The notes: a model not told the origin generated them from the sequence alone. A stretch of 32,000 bases of DNA from Archaeoglobus fulgidus DSM 4304 (GCF_000008665.1 NC_000917.1:1920001-1952000), one strand, 5' to 3'; shown: positions 18,735-27,969, counted from the first letter of the stretch. A program made the numbers and translations.

Positions 18735-19268
18735 CTAATCAAATAAATATGTTTTGGTTGGCTCGCACTTCCACCGCTGCCTCAAAGCGTCAAGCTGGGG
18801 GATGAGGGCTTTGTCAGGAATGAAGGTTCTGAAGAGGACGAAGCCGTGCTCATCCTTTGCTCTGACCACAATGGCATCTGTTTTAACTTCAGTGCCCTCT
18901 TTCACCAGCAAAATCTTGGCCATCCCTTTAACCTGACGGTCGTTGATGGTGAAGAAGTTGTTTGTGAAGGAATCGTAGAAGGAGACGGACCAGTAAGTGT
19001 TCTCAGGAACTTTTGCTTCAATCAGCAAAGGCCCCTCGGAGACGTCGTAGATGCAGAAGGAGTAAAGCAGGTTGGGGCTTGGCAGAACGACGGTTCTCTG
19101 GCTTGAGTTTATTGGAGGTGCGTGGTAGATTTTGTTCTCTTCGTAGCCTGCCGAGGTTGTTGTGTAGAAGTAGAAAACCATTATCAGCTTGGGAAGGAAG
19201 GCTACAAAGGCGATGTGAGCGATGATGGCGGAAATTGCGAAGACTGCGATATACTTCCTCATCTGCAC
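18735..19268 (-). CDS. Membrane-anchored DUF1254-like protein
   Basis: N-terminal TM IAVFAISAIIAHIAFVAFL. PSPNLLYSFCIYDVSEGPLLIEAKVPENTYWSVSFYDSFTNNF resembles the DUF1254 core, from memory of the family pattern. Confidence 0.55.
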   Translation of the reverse strand: MQMRKYIAVFAISAIIAHIAFVAFLPKLIMVFYFYTTTSAGYEENKIYHAPPINSSQRTVVLPSPNLLYSFCIYDVSEGPLLIEAKVPENTYWSVSFYDSFTNNFFTINDRQVKGMAKILLVKEGTEVKTDAIVVRAKDEHGFVLFRTFIPDKALIPQLDALRQRWKCEPTKTYLFD

Positions 19269-19837
19269 CCCTCCAGAATAATTTCTGGCAGCTGGACTGA
19301 CTGCGGGCTCTCGTAAACGATTTGTTCGGGATTGTAAAGCCTCAGGACGAGAATGAAGTTCCCTTCACCCCTCAGAGGAATCCAGCTGCCCTCCCGATGC
19401 CTCTGAGAGAGCTTCACAACCCACTTCCCGTCACTCCACTTCACACTCTCTCCAGTCACTGCATAGATGTCGTATTCGTTGGGAATGAGAAAGTGGTCAG
19501 AGCCGTAAACGGTGATGCTCCACCATCTCGCTGGAAACTTTCCTCCCTCAATTCTGTAGTCGCAGTTTAGCCTCAGGGGCTGATTGCTGCTATCCGTTGT
19601 TGCGATAAAGTAAACAGCCTCAGACCTGTTGAGGGCGAAAAGGGCGTGGATGGCAATGGCAGCTCTGGTGTAGATGTCGGCCTTTTCAGAGCCTGCAAGC
19701 AAGTTAGTCTCCCACGGACCGTTTTTCACGCTGAAAAGGTCTGCGATGTAATCAACGGCGTAGTAGGCTGTAATCACTCCGAATGCAATGCCTGCGATGG
19801 CAGCGAGAATCAGCCACTTCACAATTCTCCTATTCAA
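19259..19837 (-). CDS. Membrane-anchored DUF1214-like protein
   Basis: N-terminal TM WLILAAIAGIAFGVITAYYAV. FPARWWSITVYGSDHF and GNFILVLRLYNP resemble DUF1214. The track start is a TTG at 19837. A GTG at 19822 lies ~25 nt downstream of a TATA-like TTTATAAG, which would give a leaderless mRNA. Confidence 0.55.
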   Translation of the reverse strand: MNRRIVKWLILAAIAGIAFGVITAYYAVDYIADLFSVKNGPWETNLLAGSEKADIYTRAAIAIHALFALNRSEAVYFIATTDSSNQPLRLNCDYRIEGGKFPARWWSITVYGSDHFLIPNEYDIYAVTGESVKWSDGKWVVKLSQRHREGSWIPLRGEGNFILVLRLYNPEQIVYESPQSVQLPEIILEGCR

Positions 19838-19847
19838 AAATCCTTAT

Positions 19848-19868
19848 AAATATTACTGACAAATTGCT
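19848..19868 (+). repeat. Left copy of a perfect 21-bp direct repeat AAATATTACTGACAAATTGCT
   Basis: Identical 21-mer at 26582..26602 in the same orientation. Both copies overlap TATA-like elements. Confidence 0.9.
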
Positions 19869-19991
19869 TTACATTCTACCATCCCGTGTCAGCAAACCGC
19901 ACGATGTGGGATTGGTATGGCTAGAGCAATCGACAGAAAGATCGCAAGCACGAGTCTGTTCGCCAGCCTCAATTTATCCATGCTCCCTCTC

Positions 19992-20390
19992 CTAAGAAAC
20001 ACCAACAAAAGCCATAAACAAGCCCGAAGAGGCGACGTTCGCAGCGATCCACGTTGCTGCGAGATGCCTTCTGCTCGCATTAACGAGGGCGAGGGACGAG
20101 GTGAGGGCTAAAGCTAATCCTTCCAGGATACAAAGAGATGTTAGTATCACAACGCCGAGGTACGCTGGAATGCCGACGAATAGCCTTAGACCTTGAATGG
20201 ATGTAAAGTCGATTGCCACAAAGGAGAGTGTTACTGGGATGAACGCCTTCTCCTTAACCTCCACCCCAAAAATCCGTGAGTACAGCAGCAAGAGCGTAGC
20301 GTTGAGGGCGTAGGATAGCGAAACAACGAAGGCGACATATTCCGGGAAGGACGAGAAGCTGTTGGGAGGAATTAAAAAATTGAAGAACAT
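19992..20390 (-). CDS. Small 4-TM membrane protein M2, partner of peptidase-like P2
   Basis: 132 aa, starting 6 nt after the P2 stop. Paralogous to M1: both start MxFxFxIP and share [NS]R[KR]HLxxxWxxAN near the C-terminus. Confidence 0.6.
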   Translation of the reverse strand: MFFNFLIPPNSFSSFPEYVAFVVSLSYALNATLLLLYSRIFGVEVKEKAFIPVTLSFVAIDFTSIQGLRLFVGIPAYLGVVILTSLCILEGLALALTSSLALVNASRRHLAATWIAANVASSGLFMAFVGVS

Positions 20391-20396
20391 AAGCCC

Positions 20397-21140
20397 TCAG
20401 ATGTACATGTTGCAGTTGCCCACTTCCCTGTCCAGATCGCAGAACCATGCAGCGCTGTTCGCTTCAATCCTCGCCTCGTGTGCCGTCCTTTTCTGGTAAT
20501 TTGCATCGGAGTTTCCTGTCACGTGATCCCAGAATACGTCGGCCCAAGTTCTACAGGTTGGCAATCCGAAAGCATCGTAGTCGTGTATGCTCCCCGAAGC
20601 GCCAATAACGCACTCAACCCCCTTCCTCGCGAGGACGTTTGCCAGCGAATTCGGGTTTTCGTTTGCCGCGTAGCAGGCTTGAATCACGAAAAGCCGAGTC
20701 CGTAAGCCGTATACTGCGTGGTGGTAGCAGTACCAGAGCTCTGGGTGTTTACCTGTTCCCTTAACAACTATGCACTCTCCCTTTCCGTATCCTCCGCCCT
20801 CCTTGTTTCCGTGACCGGAATAAAACACAGCCTCGTAGTTTCTAAGAATTTGATTTACAGCGTTTGTGTTGTCTACAACGCCAAAGTCATCAACATCAGG
20901 ATCCCAATTCTTTTCCATCGAATTTTTTGCAGCGTTCGTGTTATCTTTAACCCACCAATCACCCGCTCTAAACACCGCTCCCTGATCGTTATCCACACCA
21001 ACCACCATTCCAAGCAGCCCACTCTGAACTAACTGAAACCACCTCCGTCCGCCTAACACCTGTATGGTGGCATGCCGCAGAAGTGCGGAACGAAGAAAAT
21101 TGCAACCACCAAGGTGGAAATGGAGTTGGCGAGCATCCAC
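20397..21140 (-). CDS. P2: predicted His-Cys (clan-CD-like) peptidase-domain protein, shorter paralog of P1; real start probably Met45 (21008)
   Basis: Aligns with P1 over ~200 aa: GVDNDQGAVFR, SMEKN, VNQIL, EAVFYSGHG, TRLFVIQACYA, WADVFWDHVTGNSDA, HEARIE, GNCNMYI. The first 44 codons overlap the M1 gene and look non-native. Confidence 0.65.
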   Translation of the reverse strand: MDARQLHFHLGGCNFLRSALLRHATIQVLGGRRWFQLVQSGLLGMVVGVDNDQGAVFRAGDWWVKDNTNAAKNSMEKNWDPDVDDFGVVDNTNAVNQILRNYEAVFYSGHGNKEGGGYGKGECIVVKGTGKHPELWYCYHHAVYGLRTRLFVIQACYAANENPNSLANVLARKGVECVIGASGSIHDYDAFGLPTCRTWADVFWDHVTGNSDANYQKRTAHEARIEANSAAWFCDLDREVGNCNMYI

Positions 21141-21517
21141 GAAATCACCAGATGCTTCCTGTTGACCTTCGTAAAAGCGAAGGATGCGGAATATCCAAGA
21201 ATTATCCCGCCAACGATCGCATCAAGCGCTCCAAGCTCTCCTCTGTATCTCGCCAGCTCGTCCATCAGTCTCCAGTCCCCCCACAGCCAGTAGGGCATGC
21301 TTACTATGCCCCAGCTAACGAGCCCACCAGCCAACATGGCGGCGAAGTCGAGTGGAACGAGCAGCATAGTCACGATCGGGAATTTGATCTTATCCACTTT
21401 TGATTTCGTTATCAAAGCGTATGCAGCAAGGAAGATTGCGTTTGTGGCGTAGGAGTTGATAATAAAGCTGAAATCGCCGAGTCCCGGATAGTAGGGGATG
21501 TAAAAAATGAAGAGCAT
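21053..21517 (-). CDS. Small 4-TM membrane protein M1, partner of peptidase-like P1 (start moved to Met42 of the track ORF)
   Basis: MLFIFYIPYYPGLGDF... starts 4 nt after the P1 stop. The upstream part of the track ORF overlaps P1 and is T/G/R-rich. Paralog of M2. Confidence 0.6.
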   Translation of the reverse strand: MLFIFYIPYYPGLGDFSFIINSYATNAIFLAAYALITKSKVDKIKFPIVTMLLVPLDFAAMLAGGLVSWGIVSMPYWLWGDWRLMDELARYRGELGALDAIVGGIILGYSASFAFTKVNRKHLVISWMLANSISTLVVAIFFVPHFCGMPPYRC

Positions 21518-21521
21518 GCTA

Positions 21522-22463
21522 TCAAATGTAGAAGTTGCAGTCTCCCCTCTCAACGTCGAGGTTGCAGTTCCTTGGTATCCAACCAAATAGGTTGTTAGTT
21601 TCAATCCTCGCTTCGTGTGGTGTCCTCCTGTACCCCGCATCTACATTGCCCGTTACTCTGTCCCAGAAGGCGTCAGCCCAAGCGGCACATGGTGACCAGT
21701 AGTTGTAGTCGTACAACTCCCCATCATCAGCGATAACGCACCTAACCCATTTCTCTACCAGCCACTCAGCCAGTCCATTGCCCGCATAGCAGGCTGAGAC
21801 AACGAAGAGCCTCGTTTGTCTGCCGTATGCAACATCTTTCGAGCAGAAGTTGATCTTGTTGCTGTTCTTCTCACCTTTAATCAGAATGCAGTAGTTGCTT
21901 CCGTGTCCAGAATAATACACCGCCTCGTTTTCCTCAAGTATCTGGTTTACAATGTGAGCGCATCCACTCTCACTGGAGCAGTCTAAAACGTCTCTGTTGT
22001 CCACGTTGCTATCCCACGGATAGTCTTTTGGTCTGTTTTTCTCCATCGAGCTTTCAGCAGCCTTTATATCATCCCAACATTTCGGATCGTCCACTCTGAA
22101 AACTGCCCCTTGGTTGTTGTCTACACCTTTAACGGAAGTCCTAAGAAAACCGTCATTCTCAAGACCCATCCCGCCCAACTTCCATCCAAGCTCGCTGAAG
22201 TTGATGTTTGTTTTGTATTTTTGCATAACCACCTTCAAAATTTCTTCGCCAACCTCTCTCTCGTTCTCCAAACTTATGATCCTGCTCGGCTTTGGCGTAA
22301 CCCACACCACACCAACGTCAGGAATGAACATCACACCCCCCTTCATGTTCTCCTTCATTATTTCCAACCTCTTCTTAATTCTCGGATTGAGATCAAACTT
22401 GAAATCACTCACCGGCATCTTCCTGAACGCTGCAATCTTACCAATCATCCTGTTAATTACCAC
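21522..22463 (-). CDS. P1: predicted His-Cys (clan-CD-like) peptidase-domain protein with a ~105-aa N-terminal extension; possibly frameshifted from an upstream signal peptide
   Basis: EAVYYSGHG, and 38 residues later TRLFVVSACYAG: a hydrophobic strand plus His-Gly, then a hydrophobic strand plus Ala-Cys. The C-terminal blocks are shared with P2. GTG start at 22463. Confidence 0.7.
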   Translation of the reverse strand: MVINRMIGKIAAFRKMPVSDFKFDLNPRIKKRLEIMKENMKGGVMFIPDVGVVWVTPKPSRIISLENEREVGEEILKVVMQKYKTNINFSELGWKLGGMGLENDGFLRTSVKGVDNNQGAVFRVDDPKCWDDIKAAESSMEKNRPKDYPWDSNVDNRDVLDCSSESGCAHIVNQILEENEAVYYSGHGSNYCILIKGEKNSNKINFCSKDVAYGRQTRLFVVSACYAGNGLAEWLVEKWVRCVIADDGELYDYNYWSPCAAWADAFWDRVTGNVDAGYRRTPHEARIETNNLFGWIPRNCNLDVERGDCNFYI

Positions 22464-22699
22464 ATAGCAATCTTCGCCGAAAACGGGGATACTGTTTCCC
22501 TCCCCGCGTACAGCTCAACAGAGGGCTTTGCGGTTGCCGTACGCTCAGCATTACCAAAACCAGCAGCACCGCAGCAATCCTTACCATGCCACAACACCTC
22601 TTAGCTCATGATACACAATGTCTAACAAAACTTAAATTTTTCGGTGCCAGTTTTTAACTTTTTAACATTAACATCTGAATTCCGCATCCGACAAAAATC

Positions 22700-23107
22700 T
22701 CATGAGACCATCTGCTCCAAGTCCTCTCTCGTTATCCTGTTCCTCCTTTCCTGATCTTTCCACAGCTTTCTGAAGTGGTAGAAGTATTCATACAGCTCCA
22801 ACTCATCTCTGCAGAACACGATTACGTGCTTTTCAATCACTTCAATTTTCATGTATAGGGGGAGTTCCTCAAAAAGCCAGACGTCGTATTTCTTCCCCAC
22901 CACATCGACTCTCTTGAAAACCTCCCTGATGTCATATCCCTCCGGCGAGACGATGCAAACGTCAATGTCTCTGCTTGAACTGCAATCTACCGCCGAGCCA
23001 AACAGGAGGACAGCAAGAACATCGTCTTTCAGGAACTCAAAGTCCCTATAAATTACATCTTTTTTCTCAGCCACGACTTCATCACCTTCACAAATTCCTG
23101 AAGGCAC
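22700..23107 (-). CDS. mntA: Minimal nucleotidyltransferase (MNT) of a HEPN/MNT pair
   Basis: VLLFGSAVDCSSSRDIDVCIV carries the GS...DxD polymerase-beta signature. ~125-135 aa. An alternative GTG start lies at 23074. Confidence 0.85.
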   Translation of the reverse strand: MPSGICEGDEVVAEKKDVIYRDFEFLKDDVLAVLLFGSAVDCSSSRDIDVCIVSPEGYDIREVFKRVDVVGKKYDVWLFEELPLYMKIEVIEKHVIVFCRDELELYEYFYHFRKLWKDQERRNRITREDLEQMVS

Positions 23108-23463
23108 GGAATGATCTCCTCTATTGAGTTGAGGGCAATTCTATCATCAAGTCCATTGTAGCGGTGAACCAGCCTGTTTCTAAGCCCATTCGCAACTTTT
23201 AAACATTCTGAAATATTTTTATCAACCATCTCCCCCCATTTCTGGAAGTTGGTGTAATCGTCTTTTGGGGGAACGCCAGAATCTCTAAGAAACATCGCCA
23301 CAAGATCGCATGCAGCTTCAACAGCCTCCTGAGCAGCTTTATAAACTGCCAGTCTCGACTTTTTGTCAACTTTTGCCTCCTCAATCCAGTTCAGAATGTC
23401 ACCAACTCTCTCCTCAATGTGTCCAAACTTGTCGAGATATCTGGCAATCCTCTTTTCGTCCAC
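23053..23463 (-). CDS. hepT: HEPN-domain protein (DUF86 type), putative RNase toxin of a HEPN/MNT pair
   Basis: RNRLVHRY is the R-x4-H HEPN motif near the C-terminus. 136 aa with a GTG start. It overlaps the MNT gene. Confidence 0.85.
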   Translation of the reverse strand: MDEKRIARYLDKFGHIEERVGDILNWIEEAKVDKKSRLAVYKAAQEAVEAACDLVAMFLRDSGVPPKDDYTNFQKWGEMVDKNISECLKVANGLRNRLVHRYNGLDDRIALNSIEEIIPCLQEFVKVMKSWLRKKM

Positions 23464-23492
23464 AGTTCAACTGTGACACAGTCATATATTAC
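23461..23492 (-). promoter_or_regulatory. HEPN/MNT promoter with an overlapping hexamer palindrome cluster
   Basis: The minus strand reads AATATATG (TATA-like) then gACTGTGtCACAGTtgaACTGTGgac. Three alternating ACTGTG/CACAGT hexamers (23461..23482) span the expected transcription start and the GTG start codon. Confidence 0.5.
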
Positions 23493-24463
23493 TGTTTTCC
23501 GTTATTGGGTCGGTATTTCTTGACATCATCGTTCAGAAGTTGAATGAAATTAACGCACTTATCGCCCCTGTAATCGTATCTCAGAATTTCGTTCGCATAG
23601 CCATCCTTCGTGTATCCTCCGAAAATGTAGATGTACTCGCCCCCGACAGCCACCGCCTGACCCCTTGCAACTGGAAGCTTGGTCCTCATCTCGCACAGCT
23701 CTCCTGTTTTCGGGTTAAATCTGATGATCTCATCCTTCGTTTCTGCGATTCCGCTGCTACCGCCGATGGCGAAGATGTAGCCATCCGCCACCGTAGCAGC
23801 TCTGACCCACACTCTGTCGGTGAAGGCTATCCACTTAAATCCTCCCATGGGGTCGAAGCTTGCAACCCCTTCGCCACAGAAAAAGTATGCTTTGCCGCCG
23901 TACCAAACGACCGAGTGAACACATCCTCCCGGATGCTCGATGGGGCAAGAAACATCCAATTTCGCAAAGCTTTCGTTGCTCGGATAAAAGGCGTAAACCT
24001 CGCATCTCTCGCTGTTGTTCAGGAAGATGTAAACCCTACTATCTCCCCACACCGCTGCCACGTCGGAGGTTGGATGGGGAAGAGATGCGTTTAGAACTCT
24101 TAACCTCTCCAATTTTGGGTTGAAGCTCAGTATCTGATCTGTGGGGGAATACTTTCCGTTCTCGAAGACAGTTCCGCCGAAGATTAGAATCTCCTCTCCA
24201 TCCCACACCGCCGCCTCCCTCTGACTGAAATCCTCACTGCTGAGAAGAATCTCCAGACGATTTGGAGGGTGGAATTCTGCAAAGGATGTTCCGTCAACAG
24301 TCCCCAAACCGAGGTAAACCCTATCTTCCGCCTTCACACTCCACCAGACGTACACGATAGACTCATCAGCTATTTTGCCGAGACTTGTAATCTTGTCTCC
24401 TTCATCAGTCACGCAGCAGCAAAGCAGTGCAATTGCGATGAGCAGAAGTGGCTGCGGTTTCAT
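23489..24463 (-). CDS. Secreted (lipoprotein-like) Kelch-repeat beta-propeller protein
   Basis: Signal MKPQPLLLIAIALLCCCV. Repeated Kelch-type strands ILIFGGT, RVYIFLNN, AYFFCGEG, YIFAIGGS, YIYIFGGY. GGGGATGA Shine-Dalgarno-like element before the ATG. Confidence 0.8.
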   Translation of the reverse strand: MKPQPLLLIAIALLCCCVTDEGDKITSLGKIADESIVYVWWSVKAEDRVYLGLGTVDGTSFAEFHPPNRLEILLSSEDFSQREAAVWDGEEILIFGGTVFENGKYSPTDQILSFNPKLERLRVLNASLPHPTSDVAAVWGDSRVYIFLNNSERCEVYAFYPSNESFAKLDVSCPIEHPGGCVHSVVWYGGKAYFFCGEGVASFDPMGGFKWIAFTDRVWVRAATVADGYIFAIGGSSGIAETKDEIIRFNPKTGELCEMRTKLPVARGQAVAVGGEYIYIFGGYTKDGYANEILRYDYRGDKCVNFIQLLNDDVKKYRPNNGKQ

Positions 24464-24579
24464 TTTATCATCCCCTTATTTCAGGCATCAAACTCCAAGT
24501 TTGCAGCGTAAAATACCACATGAGCAGAGGTAGGTTTATACCTCATACTCTACTCGGGACCCTAAAAATAAGCAACATT

Positions 24580-25215
24580 TTAAAGTTCACCCCCGCAAGA
24601 AACGGGAACTTTCATCCATCTGCCCCTCTTGTCCTCGGTAATATTAACGGGAGTTGTCTTGCACCATAGATAGTTGTAATGGCCGAAGTTGGTGTAAATC
24701 CTTTTTCCGAAAATGTCCACGTAGTCCAGTTCAAGGTAATACAACATGACCTGCAGGCTGACGTAGCTTGAGTTTGTGTAATCGAGAAGGACACTAACAT
24801 TCCCGTCGTCTATTCTGTATTCAGTGAGGTTCTCTATCTTAATTTCTGGGAATTCGACTGTGATGTCCATTCTGTAATTGGTTAAGGTTTCATTTTCTCC
24901 ATGCAGTCGATAAATCTCATAGTAAGGTTTTTCGCGAGCTATTTTTATATACGTTCTGTTGCCAATTTTAACAATTTCGAAATTTGCCGGTACTATCTCC
25001 AGCGAGCCCAGCTTGGCTGCAGGGATCAAGACCGTTACGTTTTCGAATGGCTTGCGGCTTTCAAGATATATGTAGTAGCTTAGCGTGTATCTTTCCTTGG
25101 TTGCGAGAGGGTCCAGCAGTCCAAAACCACCATAAACAATGAACATCGGGAGGAATAACAGTCCCAAAAAAAGGAGTATTAGAAACACCACCAATGCTGC
25201 AGATGTGCGCTTCAT
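24580..25215 (-). CDS. Membrane-anchored extracellular protein rich in N-glycosylation sequons
   Basis: N-terminal TM ALVVFLILLFLGLLFLPMFIV. Seven N-x-S/T sequons (NVT, NRT, NET, NLT, NVS, NSS, NIT). It starts 6 nt after the upstream stop. Confidence 0.55.
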   Translation of the reverse strand: MKRTSAALVVFLILLFLGLLFLPMFIVYGGFGLLDPLATKERYTLSYYIYLESRKPFENVTVLIPAAKLGSLEIVPANFEIVKIGNRTYIKIAREKPYYEIYRLHGENETLTNYRMDITVEFPEIKIENLTEYRIDDGNVSVLLDYTNSSYVSLQVMLYYLELDYVDIFGKRIYTNFGHYNYLWCKTTPVNITEDKRGRWMKVPVSCGGEL

Positions 25216-25221
25216 CCTCGA

Positions 25222-26243
25222 TCAAAACATCCGGCTTAAAATTTTTGCAGTGTTCTCGGGAAGTTCGCCCGATTTTACCATGTTTCGCAGGACTTGCTCA
25301 GCGATTTTGTCCGCTTTCGCTTTGTCGGTCATTTTGAACTCGATTACCAACCACCCGTTTTCGAATTTTCTGCTAACTTTTATTGCTCCAGACTTCTCAA
25401 GCATCGTAGCATATTCTTTCACCCATTTTTTGATTTGCACGTTAGTGCCTTTGGCATCCTTAGCAACGAGGGGGCTAAAGGTTGCTGACATTGCGTTTGG
25501 ACTTCTCGTCAGTTCAATCGATTTCTCGTACGGATTGCAATTAACTTCTTGAACGTAATCATCGTAGTCTGCAACGACGCCCGTTAAATACAGAGATAGA
25601 TAGAGTGTGTTCCCTGCAGGTGAGTTCCAGAAAGTCAGTTCAGCATAATATTCGGCAGCGAACTTGTTGTAGGCGTTGCTCAGGTCACTCTCACTTGGGG
25701 AGGAGCCGTAAAGCGATTTCATGGCCTTTGCAATAAGTTTCGTAGGGATGGCGATCCTCACGAAGTCCCAGTTCCAACCTTTTTCGTGGATGACTCTGCC
25801 GTTCACGTAAAATTCTGCTGTTATGTGATCTATTCCGTATTTCTGTGCAGCGTAGTTTGAGTAACCCACACCGTAGGTGCGATCATTGGGCAGTCCTTGT
25901 CCGTTTCCGTGGGCCACCCTATCCTGCATTAAATGGGCTAGCCATCCTTTTGCGAATGCTTTTTCGTCGGTTCCTTTTGCCAAGCTCAACATTGTGTTCG
26001 CTATTTTGATTGCCTTATTCACGTCTTCACCATGGAATTTTTTACCCCAGTCAACAGAGATCGTATAGCCAGCATCCGGCGCAATGGAGCCAGATAAGTA
26101 TTCCATTTTAAATCCCGGATGGGGGTTTCCAGCTTCTGATGACACCTGACGTGCGTTATGGTTCCCCAAGCCATCACCGGTGTCACTAAACTTCCCAGCA
26201 CTACAAACACCAGCACCAACCCAAGCGCTTTGCTACCCCACAT
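25222..26243 (-). pseudogene. Secreted Zn-dependent phospholipase C / S1-P1 nuclease-fold hydrolase, split by a 1-nt frameshift after the signal peptide
   Basis: ORF 26019..26243 encodes the signal MWGSKALGLVLVFVVLGSLVTPVMA followed by WGTITH (the W1/H6 Zn-ligand pattern). The remaining ligand-like blocks GSIAPDAGY, FHGED, WLAHLMQDRVAHG and DHITAEF lie in ORF 25222..26169, in the -1 frame. Confidence 0.6.
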
Positions 26244-26308
26244 AGTATCACCATTGCATCTTGCAACCTCTTAGCATATAAATCTTTCGTTTATTTCTAT
26301 ATTAAAAA

Positions 26309-26366
26309 GTTTAGATAATATCTAAATGTTTAGATGCGGGCTAAACTGTTTAGACGTTAGCTAAAC
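26309..26366. promoter_or_regulatory. Three abutting 19-20 bp palindromic units, GTTTAG-N7-CTAAA[CT] (operator-like array)
   Basis: Unit 1 is 26309..26327 (GTTTAGataatatCTAAAT). Unit 2 is 26328..26346 (GTTTAGatgcgggCTAAAC). Unit 3 is 26348..26366 (GTTTAGacgttagCTAAAC). The array sits between the TATA-like box of the PLC-like gene (26275..26282, minus) and a plus-strand TATA-like box (~26395..26405). Confidence 0.6.
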
Positions 26367-26581
26367 GGTCTTATACTTGAGCTATCATAAGGCAATTTTT
26401 TAATACTTTGCACATAGCATCAAATATGCTCATGCACCTGCTAACGTCAAAGAGGGGAATTGAGGTGCTCAAAGCTCTTGCATCAGGTCCCAAGAGCAGA
26501 ACTGTTTGAGTATGTTAAAGTGAACTCTGCGAGATTGGGGTTTAGATTTACTGGAATAGTTCAGAAGCAACAAATGTTTTA

Positions 26582-26602
26582 AAATATTACTGACAAATTG
26601 CT
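26582..26602 (+). repeat. Right copy of the perfect 21-bp direct repeat AAATATTACTGACAAATTGCT
   Basis: Identical to 19848..19868. It overlaps TTTAAAATA (26578..26586), a TATA-like box 23 nt upstream of the ATG at 26605. Confidence 0.9.
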
Positions 26603-26604
26603 CT

Positions 26605-27429
26605 ATGAACAGGATTGCTAAACTCCTCAAAACGAAGTATCCGATAGTTCAGGGCCCGATGGCCGGAATAACTCTCGGAGAATTTGCTTCTACAGTGTCT
26701 GAGGCTGGCGGGCTTGGAGTTATAGCTTCTGCCGGCCTTTCGCCTGAAAAACTAAAAGAGGAGATAGAGAAAGTTAAGAACAGGACTGATAAGCCCTTCG
26801 CCGTGAACATTCCAATATATCAGCCCGGCTCGGAGAAGAATCTTGAGACTGCACTTAAAGCTGATGTTGGGATTATTTACACCTCTGCAGGAAGCCCGGA
26901 GAAATACACTGAGAGAGTAAAGGAATCCGGGGCAAAAGTCATACACAAGGTGTCGAGGTTGAAAGAGGGGCTGAAAGCGGAGAAGGCGGGAGTGGATGCT
27001 GTGGTTGCGATGGGCTTTGAGGCGGGAGGGATTATAGGGAGGAGTGGTGTAACATCCTTCTGCTTGATTCCTGAGCTTGCCGACAACCTCAGCATTCCAG
27101 TTGTAGCCGCTGGCGGGATAGCAGATGAGAGGGGATTTGCTGCAGCCCTGATTCTCGGAGCGGAAGGTGTTGAGATTGGCACGAGACTGCTTGCAACCAA
27201 AGAGTGTCCCGTGCCGGAAAGCATTAAGCAAGCTATTTTAAAAGCCACCTGCGACTCCACGATGGTTATTGAGAGCCCGGTTGTAATGAGAGCTCTCAAG
27301 CCAGAGCTGAGCGGAGATTCTGAGAATCCTGCTCTGGGAGGGCAGGTTTCAGGGCTGATTAAGGAGATTCTTACGGTTGAAGAGGTAATCAGGAAAATTG
27401 CAGAGGGGCTGAATAAAGCTAAATTCTAA
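26605..27429 (+). CDS. Nitronate monooxygenase / FabK-like FMN-dependent oxidoreductase (NMO family)
   Basis: YPIVQGPMAGITLGEFASTVSEAGGLGVIA, and later AGGIADERGFAAALILGAEGVEIGTRLL. These are typical NMO (2-nitropropane dioxygenase-like) TIM-barrel blocks. Confidence 0.85.
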   Translation: MNRIAKLLKTKYPIVQGPMAGITLGEFASTVSEAGGLGVIASAGLSPEKLKEEIEKVKNRTDKPFAVNIPIYQPGSEKNLETALKADVGIIYTSAGSPEKYTERVKESGAKVIHKVSRLKEGLKAEKAGVDAVVAMGFEAGGIIGRSGVTSFCLIPELADNLSIPVVAAGGIADERGFAAALILGAEGVEIGTRLLATKECPVPESIKQAILKATCDSTMVIESPVVMRALKPELSGDSENPALGGQVSGLIKEILTVEEVIRKIAEGLNKAKF

Positions 27430-27453
27430 GTTGGGGCTTCTTGTTTCCTCTCC

Positions 27454-27948
27454 TATGTATTCATCATCAAACAAATGCCGTCAATAAGCTTTATACCCTC
27501 CTCTTTGCATGCCCTCTTAAAATCACCATCAAACGAAATCAGATATTTTACTCCATAAAATTTACAGGTGGAAAGGATTATAGCGTCATTTGGCAATAAA
27601 CCATCTTCTTTACAAATTCGTAGGCCAGATTTCTGATTTCCCTGTTAATTTCCAGTTCCTCAAAAATCTCAAAAAGCATGAAAAGCTCTTCCAGTTCATT
27701 TTCCCTCTCTATGATCAGTTCTGGATTCTTTTTCAGTTCGTAGGTTCTTTTTTCCAGTAATAGCCTTTAAATACACGAGGAAAACCTAGCTAAAAACGAT
27801 AGCGTTTGAGCAGAGTTTGTATAGTGCAATGCTATTTAAAGGATTTTACACCTCAGAATTAAGAGAATGAGTTTTTACGAATATAGGTTTAAGCTGCGTT
27901 TTTCTTTCTGCATTCACAGCCTTAACCCAACCAGATTCGAGAACCATT
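27454..27948 (-). pseudogene. Decayed PIN-domain (VapC-like) gene with several frame disruptions
   Basis: Hand translation gives three pieces. MVLESGWVKAVNAERK... runs from 27948. ...LEINREIRNLAYEFVKK spans 27761..27579. In the -1 frame DGLLPNDAIILSTCKFYGVKYLISFDGDFKRACKEEGIKLI* spans 27606..27454 and is a classic PIN C-terminal half. Confidence 0.5.
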
Positions 27949-27969
27949 AACCCGAATTTGGCAAAATAG

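Follow-up and report, generated by a model that had tools for sequence, protein, structure and literature searches.

A probable case of a host promoter duplicated and split around a gene island in Archaeoglobus fulgidus

In the genome of Archaeoglobus fulgidus DSM 4304, an accessory block of approximately 6.7 kb lies between a DUF1214 gene and a gene for an NMO/FabK-like flavin oxidoreductase (hereafter NMO), and one copy of a perfect 21-bp direct repeat stands at either end of it. The block is contained in a stretch of 32,000 nucleotides (NC_000917.1:1920001-1952000), here called the window, in which all positions are counted from the first letter. An earlier note on the window, made from its sequence alone, had read the repeats as possible att-like junctions of an integrated or decaying element. 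The locus thus raises the question of whether the repeat was brought in by such an element or belonged to the host. Based on comparison with related loci (numbered L001 and so on), we consider it probable that a host promoter was duplicated and split around an island that was inserted in the lineage of A. fulgidus and L011, the latter from a separate Archaeoglobus species. The features on which the argument turns are as follows.

19259..19822, minus strand: DUF1214 gene (Pfam) with a GTG start at 19822, left neighbour of the block; a DUF1254 gene follows; the product has 187 amino acids (aa) in L001 and other loci.
19832..19871, no strand assigned: extended, partly diverged duplicate on the DUF1214 side, containing a TATA-like TTATAAATATT at 19844-19854.
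19848..19868, plus strand: copy 1 of the 21-mer, adjoining DUF1214; by position, the orthologue of the spacer that precedes DUF1214 in relatives.
19869..26564 (about), minus strand: inserted accessory block of ~6.7 kb, with every intact gene on the minus strand.
26565..26605, no strand assigned: extended duplicate on the NMO side, containing an altered TATA-like TTTTAAAATATT at 26577-26588.
26582..26602, plus strand: copy 2 of the 21-mer, reaching from the TATA element to 3 nt short of the NMO ATG (26605).
26605..27429, plus strand: NMO gene (Pfam, NCBIfam), right neighbour of the block.

The repeat, AAATATTACTGACAAATTGCT, was present in exactly two copies in the window, both on the plus strand, and no further site was found there even when three mismatches were allowed. 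No match occurred in 100 dinucleotide-preserving shuffles, in good agreement with the earlier note, which had called the repeat perfect and beyond chance. In the DNA examined, the count was two copies only. Pfam matches also confirmed the flanking genes as DUF1214-like and NMO-family. The note's statement that the copies lack flanking similarity did not hold, as ungapped extension lengthened the repeat to 34 nt at 85% identity (19838-19871 versus 26572-26605). On the NMO side the similarity breaks off abruptly, no more than a few bases from where the 21-mer ends, and nothing similar to the 5' end of NMO was seen in the sequence in front of copy 1.

Several relatives carry no block at this site. 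In L034 and L035, the gene order is Lhr-UbiA-Exo5, then NMO on the opposite strand, then DUF1214-DUF1254, and L047 has the same arrangement of NMO and DUF1214 in a different wider context. The distance from start codon to start codon between NMO and DUF1214 was 52 bp in L034, 53 bp in L035 and 52 bp in L047, around one symmetric TTTATAAATATT. An ancestral empty site of precisely this kind, with the two genes divergent around a single symmetric TATA-like element, had been anticipated in the earlier note. When the block and one repeat copy were removed from the A. fulgidus sequence, the reconstructed empty site had its start codons 49 bp apart.

The A. fulgidus NMO is 72-73% identical to that of L034, L035 and L047, compared with ~40-50% for the best bacterial matches, and the outgroup genes are hence orthologous to it. 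The idea that NMO itself was part of the insertion, first suggested by an NMO search that yielded L011 and bacterial homologues at ≤40% identity and by L029/L030, was dropped, as L034, L035 and L047 have NMO beside DUF1214 and proved to be outgroups by their Exo5 and DUF1214 identities. Exo5 identity to A. fulgidus was 87% in L011 (where NMO is 95% identical), 74-76% in L029, L030 and L031 (two related species in which both NMO and the block are absent), and 45-47% in L034, L035, L043 and L047. DUF1214 identity followed the same grouping, with 76-77% in L029, L030 and L031 and 63-65% in L034, L035 and L047. Because Exo5 and DUF1214 group alike, the empty-site lineages are outgroups and the block is derived. 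These sequence relationships place the origin of the block on the A. fulgidus/L011 stem and make the absence of NMO from L029/L030 a loss. In more distant Archaeoglobaceae (L036-L038), DUF1214-DUF1254 stand in unrelated surroundings without synteny, and these genomes were uninformative as outgroups.

In L029, L030 and L031 the Exo5 stop codon abuts a homologue of the 21-mer, GCAAAATTTGTCAGCAATATTTATAAAG, which is followed by DUF1214 (9946-10000 in both L029 and L030). The NMO coding sequence is cleanly gone and the predicted DUF1214 promoter is intact. Since GCAAAATTTGTCAGCAATATTTATAAAG stands between Exo5 and DUF1214 in these species, the sequence of copy 1 is native to the region upstream of DUF1214. 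A possible remnant of the Exo5 3' end beside copy 1 (GGTAGAATGTA versus GGTAAGAATGTA in L030) was judged too short for meaning.

Among occupied sites, identity to the window was 99.6% for CP006577 (A. fulgidus strain 7324) and 99.98% for a Logan contig. Of the A. fulgidus-level contigs listed, each one that encodes an identical NMO and extends far enough had the block together with both copies; the search for empty-site alleles proposed in the earlier note found none among these contigs. The published comparison of A. fulgidus 7324 with VC16 does not discuss this locus. The L011 contig begins inside the block and has its right part, with one substitution in copy 2 (AAtTATT...). L032 and L033 are ~94-99% identical to the window; their copy 1 has one substitution at its distal end, and a deletion of 408 bp takes out the gene for a 132-aa transmembrane (TM) protein. 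In the assembly GCA_001684035.1, one contig (L032, 1-4005 and 9877-9932) has unrelated genes to the right of the phospholipase-C-like gene (an AF_1016-family gene and a helix-turn-helix-abhydrolase gene), and a second contig (L009) has the window-type junction with NMO. These two right ends may reflect a mixed assembly or an alternative arrangement.

The distribution of occupied and empty sites can also be read in the reverse direction, so that the whole group would descend from an ancestor with the block and both repeats, and the empty sites of L034, L035 and L047 would have been produced by secondary deletions through recombination between the direct repeats. Such recombination would recreate exactly the one-copy spacer, and the locus does suffer deletions, namely of NMO in L029, L030 and L031 and of 408 bp in L032/L033. 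However, precise losses would have had to occur independently in two or more separate outgroup lineages, of which one (L047) has a different wider context. The two A. fulgidus copies are, moreover, identical in the segment that is most variable between species, which argues that the duplication is younger than those splits, and a duplicated host promoter at both ends would still require an insertion or duplication at some point. We regard this order of events as highly improbable.

The derived position of the block leaves the origin of the repeat itself. Copy 1 could be aligned to GCAAAATTTGTCAGCAATATTT of L030 and to the spacers of L034, L035 and L047, and copy 2 is, by its position, the TATA-to-start segment of the predicted NMO promoter. 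In a blastn comparison of L034 with the window, homology ran from NMO across copy 2 to 26565, 17 nt into what had been supposed to be the block side. For either copy, the 16-17 nt that adjoin it on the DUF1214 side are homologous to one and the same ancestral spacer. The flank of copy 1, ATTCAAAAATCCTTAT, has an edit distance of 4 from the L034 16-mer AAGCAAAAATGTTTAT, and the flank of copy 2, AAGCAACAAATGTTTTA, an edit distance of 3 from the same 16-mer; with fixed-position matching, such distances were reached at 5e-4 and 1.4e-4 of window positions, respectively. In the spacer alignment the two flanks fall on the same outgroup nucleotides. Hence, at least 37 bp of the ~50-bp ancestral spacer are now present in duplicate, and identity is now confined to the 21 bp nearest NMO. 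On this sequence evidence, the two 21-mers are best described as the still-identical core of duplicated host promoter DNA, not as element DNA.

The history that we favour would start from an ancestor with divergent NMO and DUF1214 genes, start codons ~50 bp apart and a single symmetric TATA of the TTTATAAATATT form. In the A. fulgidus/L011 lineage, the ~6.7 kb block would have entered on the DUF1214 side of the spacer, in an event that duplicated at least 37 bp of it. Copy 2 with its extension (26565-26605) would have stayed with NMO and comprised the upstream element, the TATA and the TATA-to-ATG segment; copy 1 with its extension (19832-19871) would have stayed with DUF1214 and comprised the upstream region with the putative B recognition element (BRE), the TATA and the leader. 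A complete promoter would in this way have been left to both flanking genes. Later, the halves that had lost their gene would have changed, with 21 bp still undiverged in this strain. Physically, the duplication may have come about by staggered breaks, by template switching or by the Campbell-type entry of a circle that carried a copy of the spacer. An origin by tandem duplication was rejected, as copy 2 is not followed by a remnant of DUF1214, nor is the sequence in front of copy 1 repeated downstream of DUF1254.

The assumption that one spacer served two genes has a close parallel in the Thermococcales. In P. furiosus, BRE-TATA-BRE promoters have transcription start sites (TSSs) 49 bp apart in vitro (PMC6640164), and in T. 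kodakarensis divergent TSSs are mostly 52 bp apart around a shared TTATAAA (bioRxiv 10.1101/2020.01.31.928960). The Archaeoglobus spacer similarly has a single near-symmetric TATA (TTTATAAA type) midway between divergent starts 49-53 bp apart. The predicted promoter differs from the Thermococcales case in serving two real genes rather than a gene and an antisense by-product, and in having been duplicated and split by an island. In the window, copy 1 abuts TTATAAATATT, and the GTG of DUF1214 lies 26 nt from the centre of that element. A-rich stretches occur on both sides of the TATA, and candidate BREs were assigned there by eye only. No Rfam match was obtained at the locus. From the sequence and this analogy, we infer that NMO and DUF1214 were once served by one shared-TATA promoter, with leaderless or near-leaderless mRNAs.

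Two further observations concern the DUF1214 side. In A. fulgidus alone, a Shine-Dalgarno-like AGGAG (19827-19831, minus strand) precedes the GTG of DUF1214 by 4 nt; the same position reads ATGAG in L032, and nothing similar is present in the outgroups. It may permit translation of DUF1214 also from transcripts that read through from the block, beyond leaderless mRNA alone. A candidate non-coding RNA downstream of copy 1 was rejected, as Rfam gave no match and folding at 19869-19991 was ordinary (z-scores of -0.56 and 0.10 for the two strands).

The reading closest to that of the earlier note is that the block is what remains of an integrative element (a provirus, a plasmid or an element similar to integrative and conjugative elements) that entered by means of an integrase, the 21-mer being the att core (attL/attR) and the integrase gene having been lost later. 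Exact direct repeats precisely at both block ends, the sharp edge of identity on the NMO side and the one-copy empty site in L034, L035 and L047 all agree with such an entry. So does the cargo, which is typical of islands (a toxin-antitoxin pair and variable secreted proteins), and in Geoglobus a pair of peptidase-like and TM genes of the kind found in the block has an IS240 transposase and an MNT gene nearby. An att arm from the donor could, in addition, account for a copy 2 flank that is homologous to, yet diverged from, the copy 1 flank. The other arm, beside copy 1, is however without homology to the NMO side, and for at least 37 bp both copies, flanks included, are orthologous to the promoter DNA of the host.

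The content of the block likewise argues against entry by means of an integrase. The earlier note had seen no integrase in the block, and searches of its open reading frames with Pfam, NCBIfam and PADLOC revealed neither an integrase nor a recombinase, transposase or Cas1. The only non-coding DNA in the block consists of four short gaps (~120-340 bp each), which leave no room for a recombinase pseudogene. A tRNA gene is the usual, though not obligatory, target of integration in archaea, and the window contains none that could have served as one. The comparison of composition proposed in the earlier note showed the block to be within the host range: GC content at third codon positions (GC3) was 0.547 in the block and 0.586 in the flanks, with single flank genes at 0.38-0.70, and the GC profile had no step at the boundaries. 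No relatives of the block were found in IMG/VR or in phage and plasmid collections. Exact-pattern scans of metagenome and viral collections with the 21-mer returned the known NMO contig and three chance matches in unrelated DNA of 26-34% GC that otherwise resembled the window nowhere, with no attP candidate and no empty-site allele; the sole match in the viral collection was a chance one to unrelated low-GC DNA. No excised or empty allele was present in the A. fulgidus-level contigs sampled, and a local alignment of the block ends for terminal inverted repeats scored no better than shuffles. Taken together, an integrase-borne origin appears unlikely to us. What stands of the earlier proposal is the insertion, given that the block is absent in relatives; the att junctions are not supported, the repeat being predicted host promoter DNA and the hallmarks of mobility being absent.

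Comparison with described insertions helps to place the block. It resembles the direct-repeat islands InsI and InsII in being an accessory block between exact direct repeats, in having a one-copy site in relatives, and in its cargo of a toxin-antitoxin pair and hypothetical proteins. Unlike InsI and InsII, both with 42% GC versus the genome average, it has a host-like composition, no integrase and no tRNA target; its repeat is a duplicated, predicted host promoter with diverged extensions, and it shows no sign of current mobility. Target-site duplications of transposons, insertion sequences (ISs) and casposons also place host sequence from the insertion point as a direct repeat on both sides. 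These duplications are typically 2-15 bp long, whereas the duplication described here spans at least 37 bp and is accompanied by no terminal inverted repeats, transposase or Cas1. A genuine IS at this locus, that of L043, has inverted repeats of its own as well as an rve-family gene and looks quite different from the block.

Three points weigh against the history of a duplicated and split promoter. First, the copies differ at 0 of 21 sites in the 21-mer versus 7 of ~16 in the duplicated flank. The probability that all seven differences fall in the flank is ~1e-3 (C(16,7)/C(37,7), calculated by hand), or 0.01 if five are counted. A simple recent neutral duplication does not predict this pattern, which needs relaxed or adaptive change in the flank, a constrained 21-mer, or two spacer alleles of different origin. 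Second, copy 1 and L029/L030 have a C beside the TATA where copy 2 and every outgroup have a G. This fits a parallel change in two lineages, and it fits equally well an insertion before the split of L029/L030, followed there by one deletion of NMO, copy 2 and the block. Third, either copy is taken to be a promoter from its position, from its sequence and by analogy.

The contrast between 21-mer and adjacent flank could also be a matter of function instead of insertion history, if the 21-mer were kept identical as the binding site of a transcription factor that co-regulates NMO and DUF1214/DUF1254. A common regulator site had been the fallback of the earlier note. In keeping with it, A. fulgidus, L030 and L047 share an ACAAAT(T) core that lies between TATA and NMO start, and the segment survives upstream of DUF1214 in L029/L030 despite the loss of NMO. 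The NMO-proximal 14 nt nevertheless vary strongly among species (ATGGTAAATGTCTCC in L034/L035, GCCAATAATTTTTAC in L029), and the single substitutions that L032/L033 have in copy 1 and L011 has in copy 2 are close to neutral drift. With just two copies in the DNA examined, the 21-mer is also not supported as the frequent motif that a common site would imply. Moreover, the site would lie downstream of the TATA for NMO and upstream of it for DUF1214, so that one factor would act differently on each. Its position on both sides of the block would stay unexplained, which makes regulation an addition to the insertion history and not a replacement for it. As a full account of the repeat, we find it quite unlikely.

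With regard to the duplicated promoter, the excess of differences in its flank can be considered more closely. After the divergence from L011 and L032, each 21-mer changed about once per lineage. Because this is roughly neutral, the perfect identity of the 21-mers in the type-strain lineage is unremarkable, and it is the flank excess that needs explaining. In copy 1, the GT that adjoins the TATA where NMO formerly lay became CC. In copy 2, the change from TTTATAAA to TTTTAAAA (AT to TA) affected the TATA itself, and one C was inserted. The changed positions are thus on the TATA side that lost its gene, or in the TATA itself. As a speculation, such changes would fit relaxed or adaptive re-tuning of two promoters that are now one-way.

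The island appears fixed and no longer mobile, and the locus is an ordinary, now immobile genomic island with a promoter-duplication feature rather than a live mobile element; it reveals no new mobile element and no new mechanism. It offers a clean, dated case of a compact archaeal genome that tolerates a gene island inside a predicted 50-bp two-way promoter, in which copying of the promoter lets both neighbouring genes keep their own. It also constitutes a natural experiment on promoter directionality, in which an ancestral symmetric promoter can be compared with two diverged daughters. We see an outside chance at best that more is involved, namely an integrase-independent insertion route in Archaeoglobus, in which, for example, widely staggered breaks or template switching copy the whole target promoter, or a 21-bp pair that is a working recombination substrate for loss and regain of the island and thereby re-fuses or splits a bidirectional promoter. 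If the latter were true, the GT to CC and AT to TA changes would represent a natural conversion of a bidirectional promoter into two one-way promoters.

The genes and other features inside the block are listed below in order of position.

19992..20390, minus strand: 132-aa membrane protein, paralogue 2 of the TM partner, 29% identical to the 154-aa protein.
20397..21008, minus strand: 203-aa peptidase-like protein, paralogue 2, with a GHG...ACYA motif, 46% identical to the 308-aa protein.
21053..21517, minus strand: 154-aa membrane protein, paralogue 1 (TM partner gene).
21522..22448, minus strand: 308-aa peptidase-like protein, with 9 homologues.
22700..23074, minus strand: MntA-like nucleotidyltransferase antitoxin (Pfam Polbeta; NCBIfam MntA below its cut-off).
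23053..23463, minus strand: HepT-like (HEPN) RNase toxin (Pfam HepT-like, E = 2.6e-20).
23489..24463, minus strand: 324-aa Kelch-repeat protein with an N-terminal signal or lipobox-like sequence.
24580..25215, minus strand: 211-aa secreted or membrane-anchored protein without a family match.
25222..26243, minus strand: Zn-dependent phospholipase-C-like (PLC-like) secreted protein, frameshifted (Pfam Zn_dep_PLPC).
26310..26365, no strand assigned: three tandem TTTAGA-N6-CTAAA palindromes inside the right block end (0.03 expected by chance).

This content agrees with what the earlier note had described, including the duplicated peptidase/TM modules, the HEPN/MNT pair, the three secreted proteins of which one is frameshifted, and the palindromes; its winged helix-turn-helix (wHTH) remnant was recovered weakly. 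No PADLOC match identified the block as a defence system. The two paralogous peptidase-like/TM pairs in the block are 46% (peptidase-like) and 29% (TM) identical. The 308-aa peptidase-like protein gave no match in Pfam, NCBIfam or PDB and belongs to a small family of 9 proteins, whose named members come from Archaeoglobus and Geoglobus; one source labels a member 'C13 family peptidase'. The peptidase-like/TM module recurs at unrelated loci (L039-L041, 9001-11827; L042, 9001-10769): other Archaeoglobus species have the same four-gene cassette (429, 145, 213 and 156 aa), and Geoglobus acetivorans has a single pair (426 aa and 161 aa), the one near the IS240 transposase and the MNT gene. Because this cassette occurs at unrelated loci in other Archaeoglobaceae, the block looks like a mosaic of lineage-specific accessory cassettes of Archaeoglobaceae type, assembled by recombination.

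The right part of the block varies among strains and species. The frameshift in the PLC-like gene is strain-specific: the protein is intact (340 aa) in L001, L003, L005, L006 and L008 and split (294 aa) in L002, L004 and L007, and it is also split in the window. In L011 (1887-4040, corresponding to 24464-26189 of the window), two unrelated secreted proteins of 221 aa and 358 aa stand in place of the 211-aa and PLC-like genes. The exchange keeps the 5' end encoding the signal peptide (MW.SKALGLVLV...) and the upstream region, and looks like cassette exchange behind a conserved leader. The palindromes are located between the start of the PLC-like gene and the weak wHTH remnant on the plus strand (~26430-26580; HTH_5, E = 0.03, below the cut-off, and hence weakly supported). 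Together they look like an orphaned operator array.

Changes at this locus are not confined to the block. The NMO/DUF1214/Exo5 junction is a recurrent insertion/deletion hot spot in Archaeoglobus, because NMO is deleted in the sister species, an IS lies inside NMO in one outgroup, and a PIN remnant is present on the other side of NMO. This remnant, a frameshifted PIN/VapC gene at ~27450-27700 on the minus strand (Pfam PIN, E = 1.4e-6), lies within a 540-bp spacer (27430-27969) between the NMO and Exo5 stop codons. As no more than 2 nt separate these stop codons in the outgroups L034, L035 and L043, the spacer with the PIN remnant represents a second, independent insertion at the locus. The IS of L043 (1-986), which belongs to the rve family and has terminal inverted repeats GGACTATACA, lies inside NMO of an outgroup Archaeoglobus lineage and cuts the gene to 194 aa. 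The metagenome contigs L044-L046 end at the same point of NMO as this IS.

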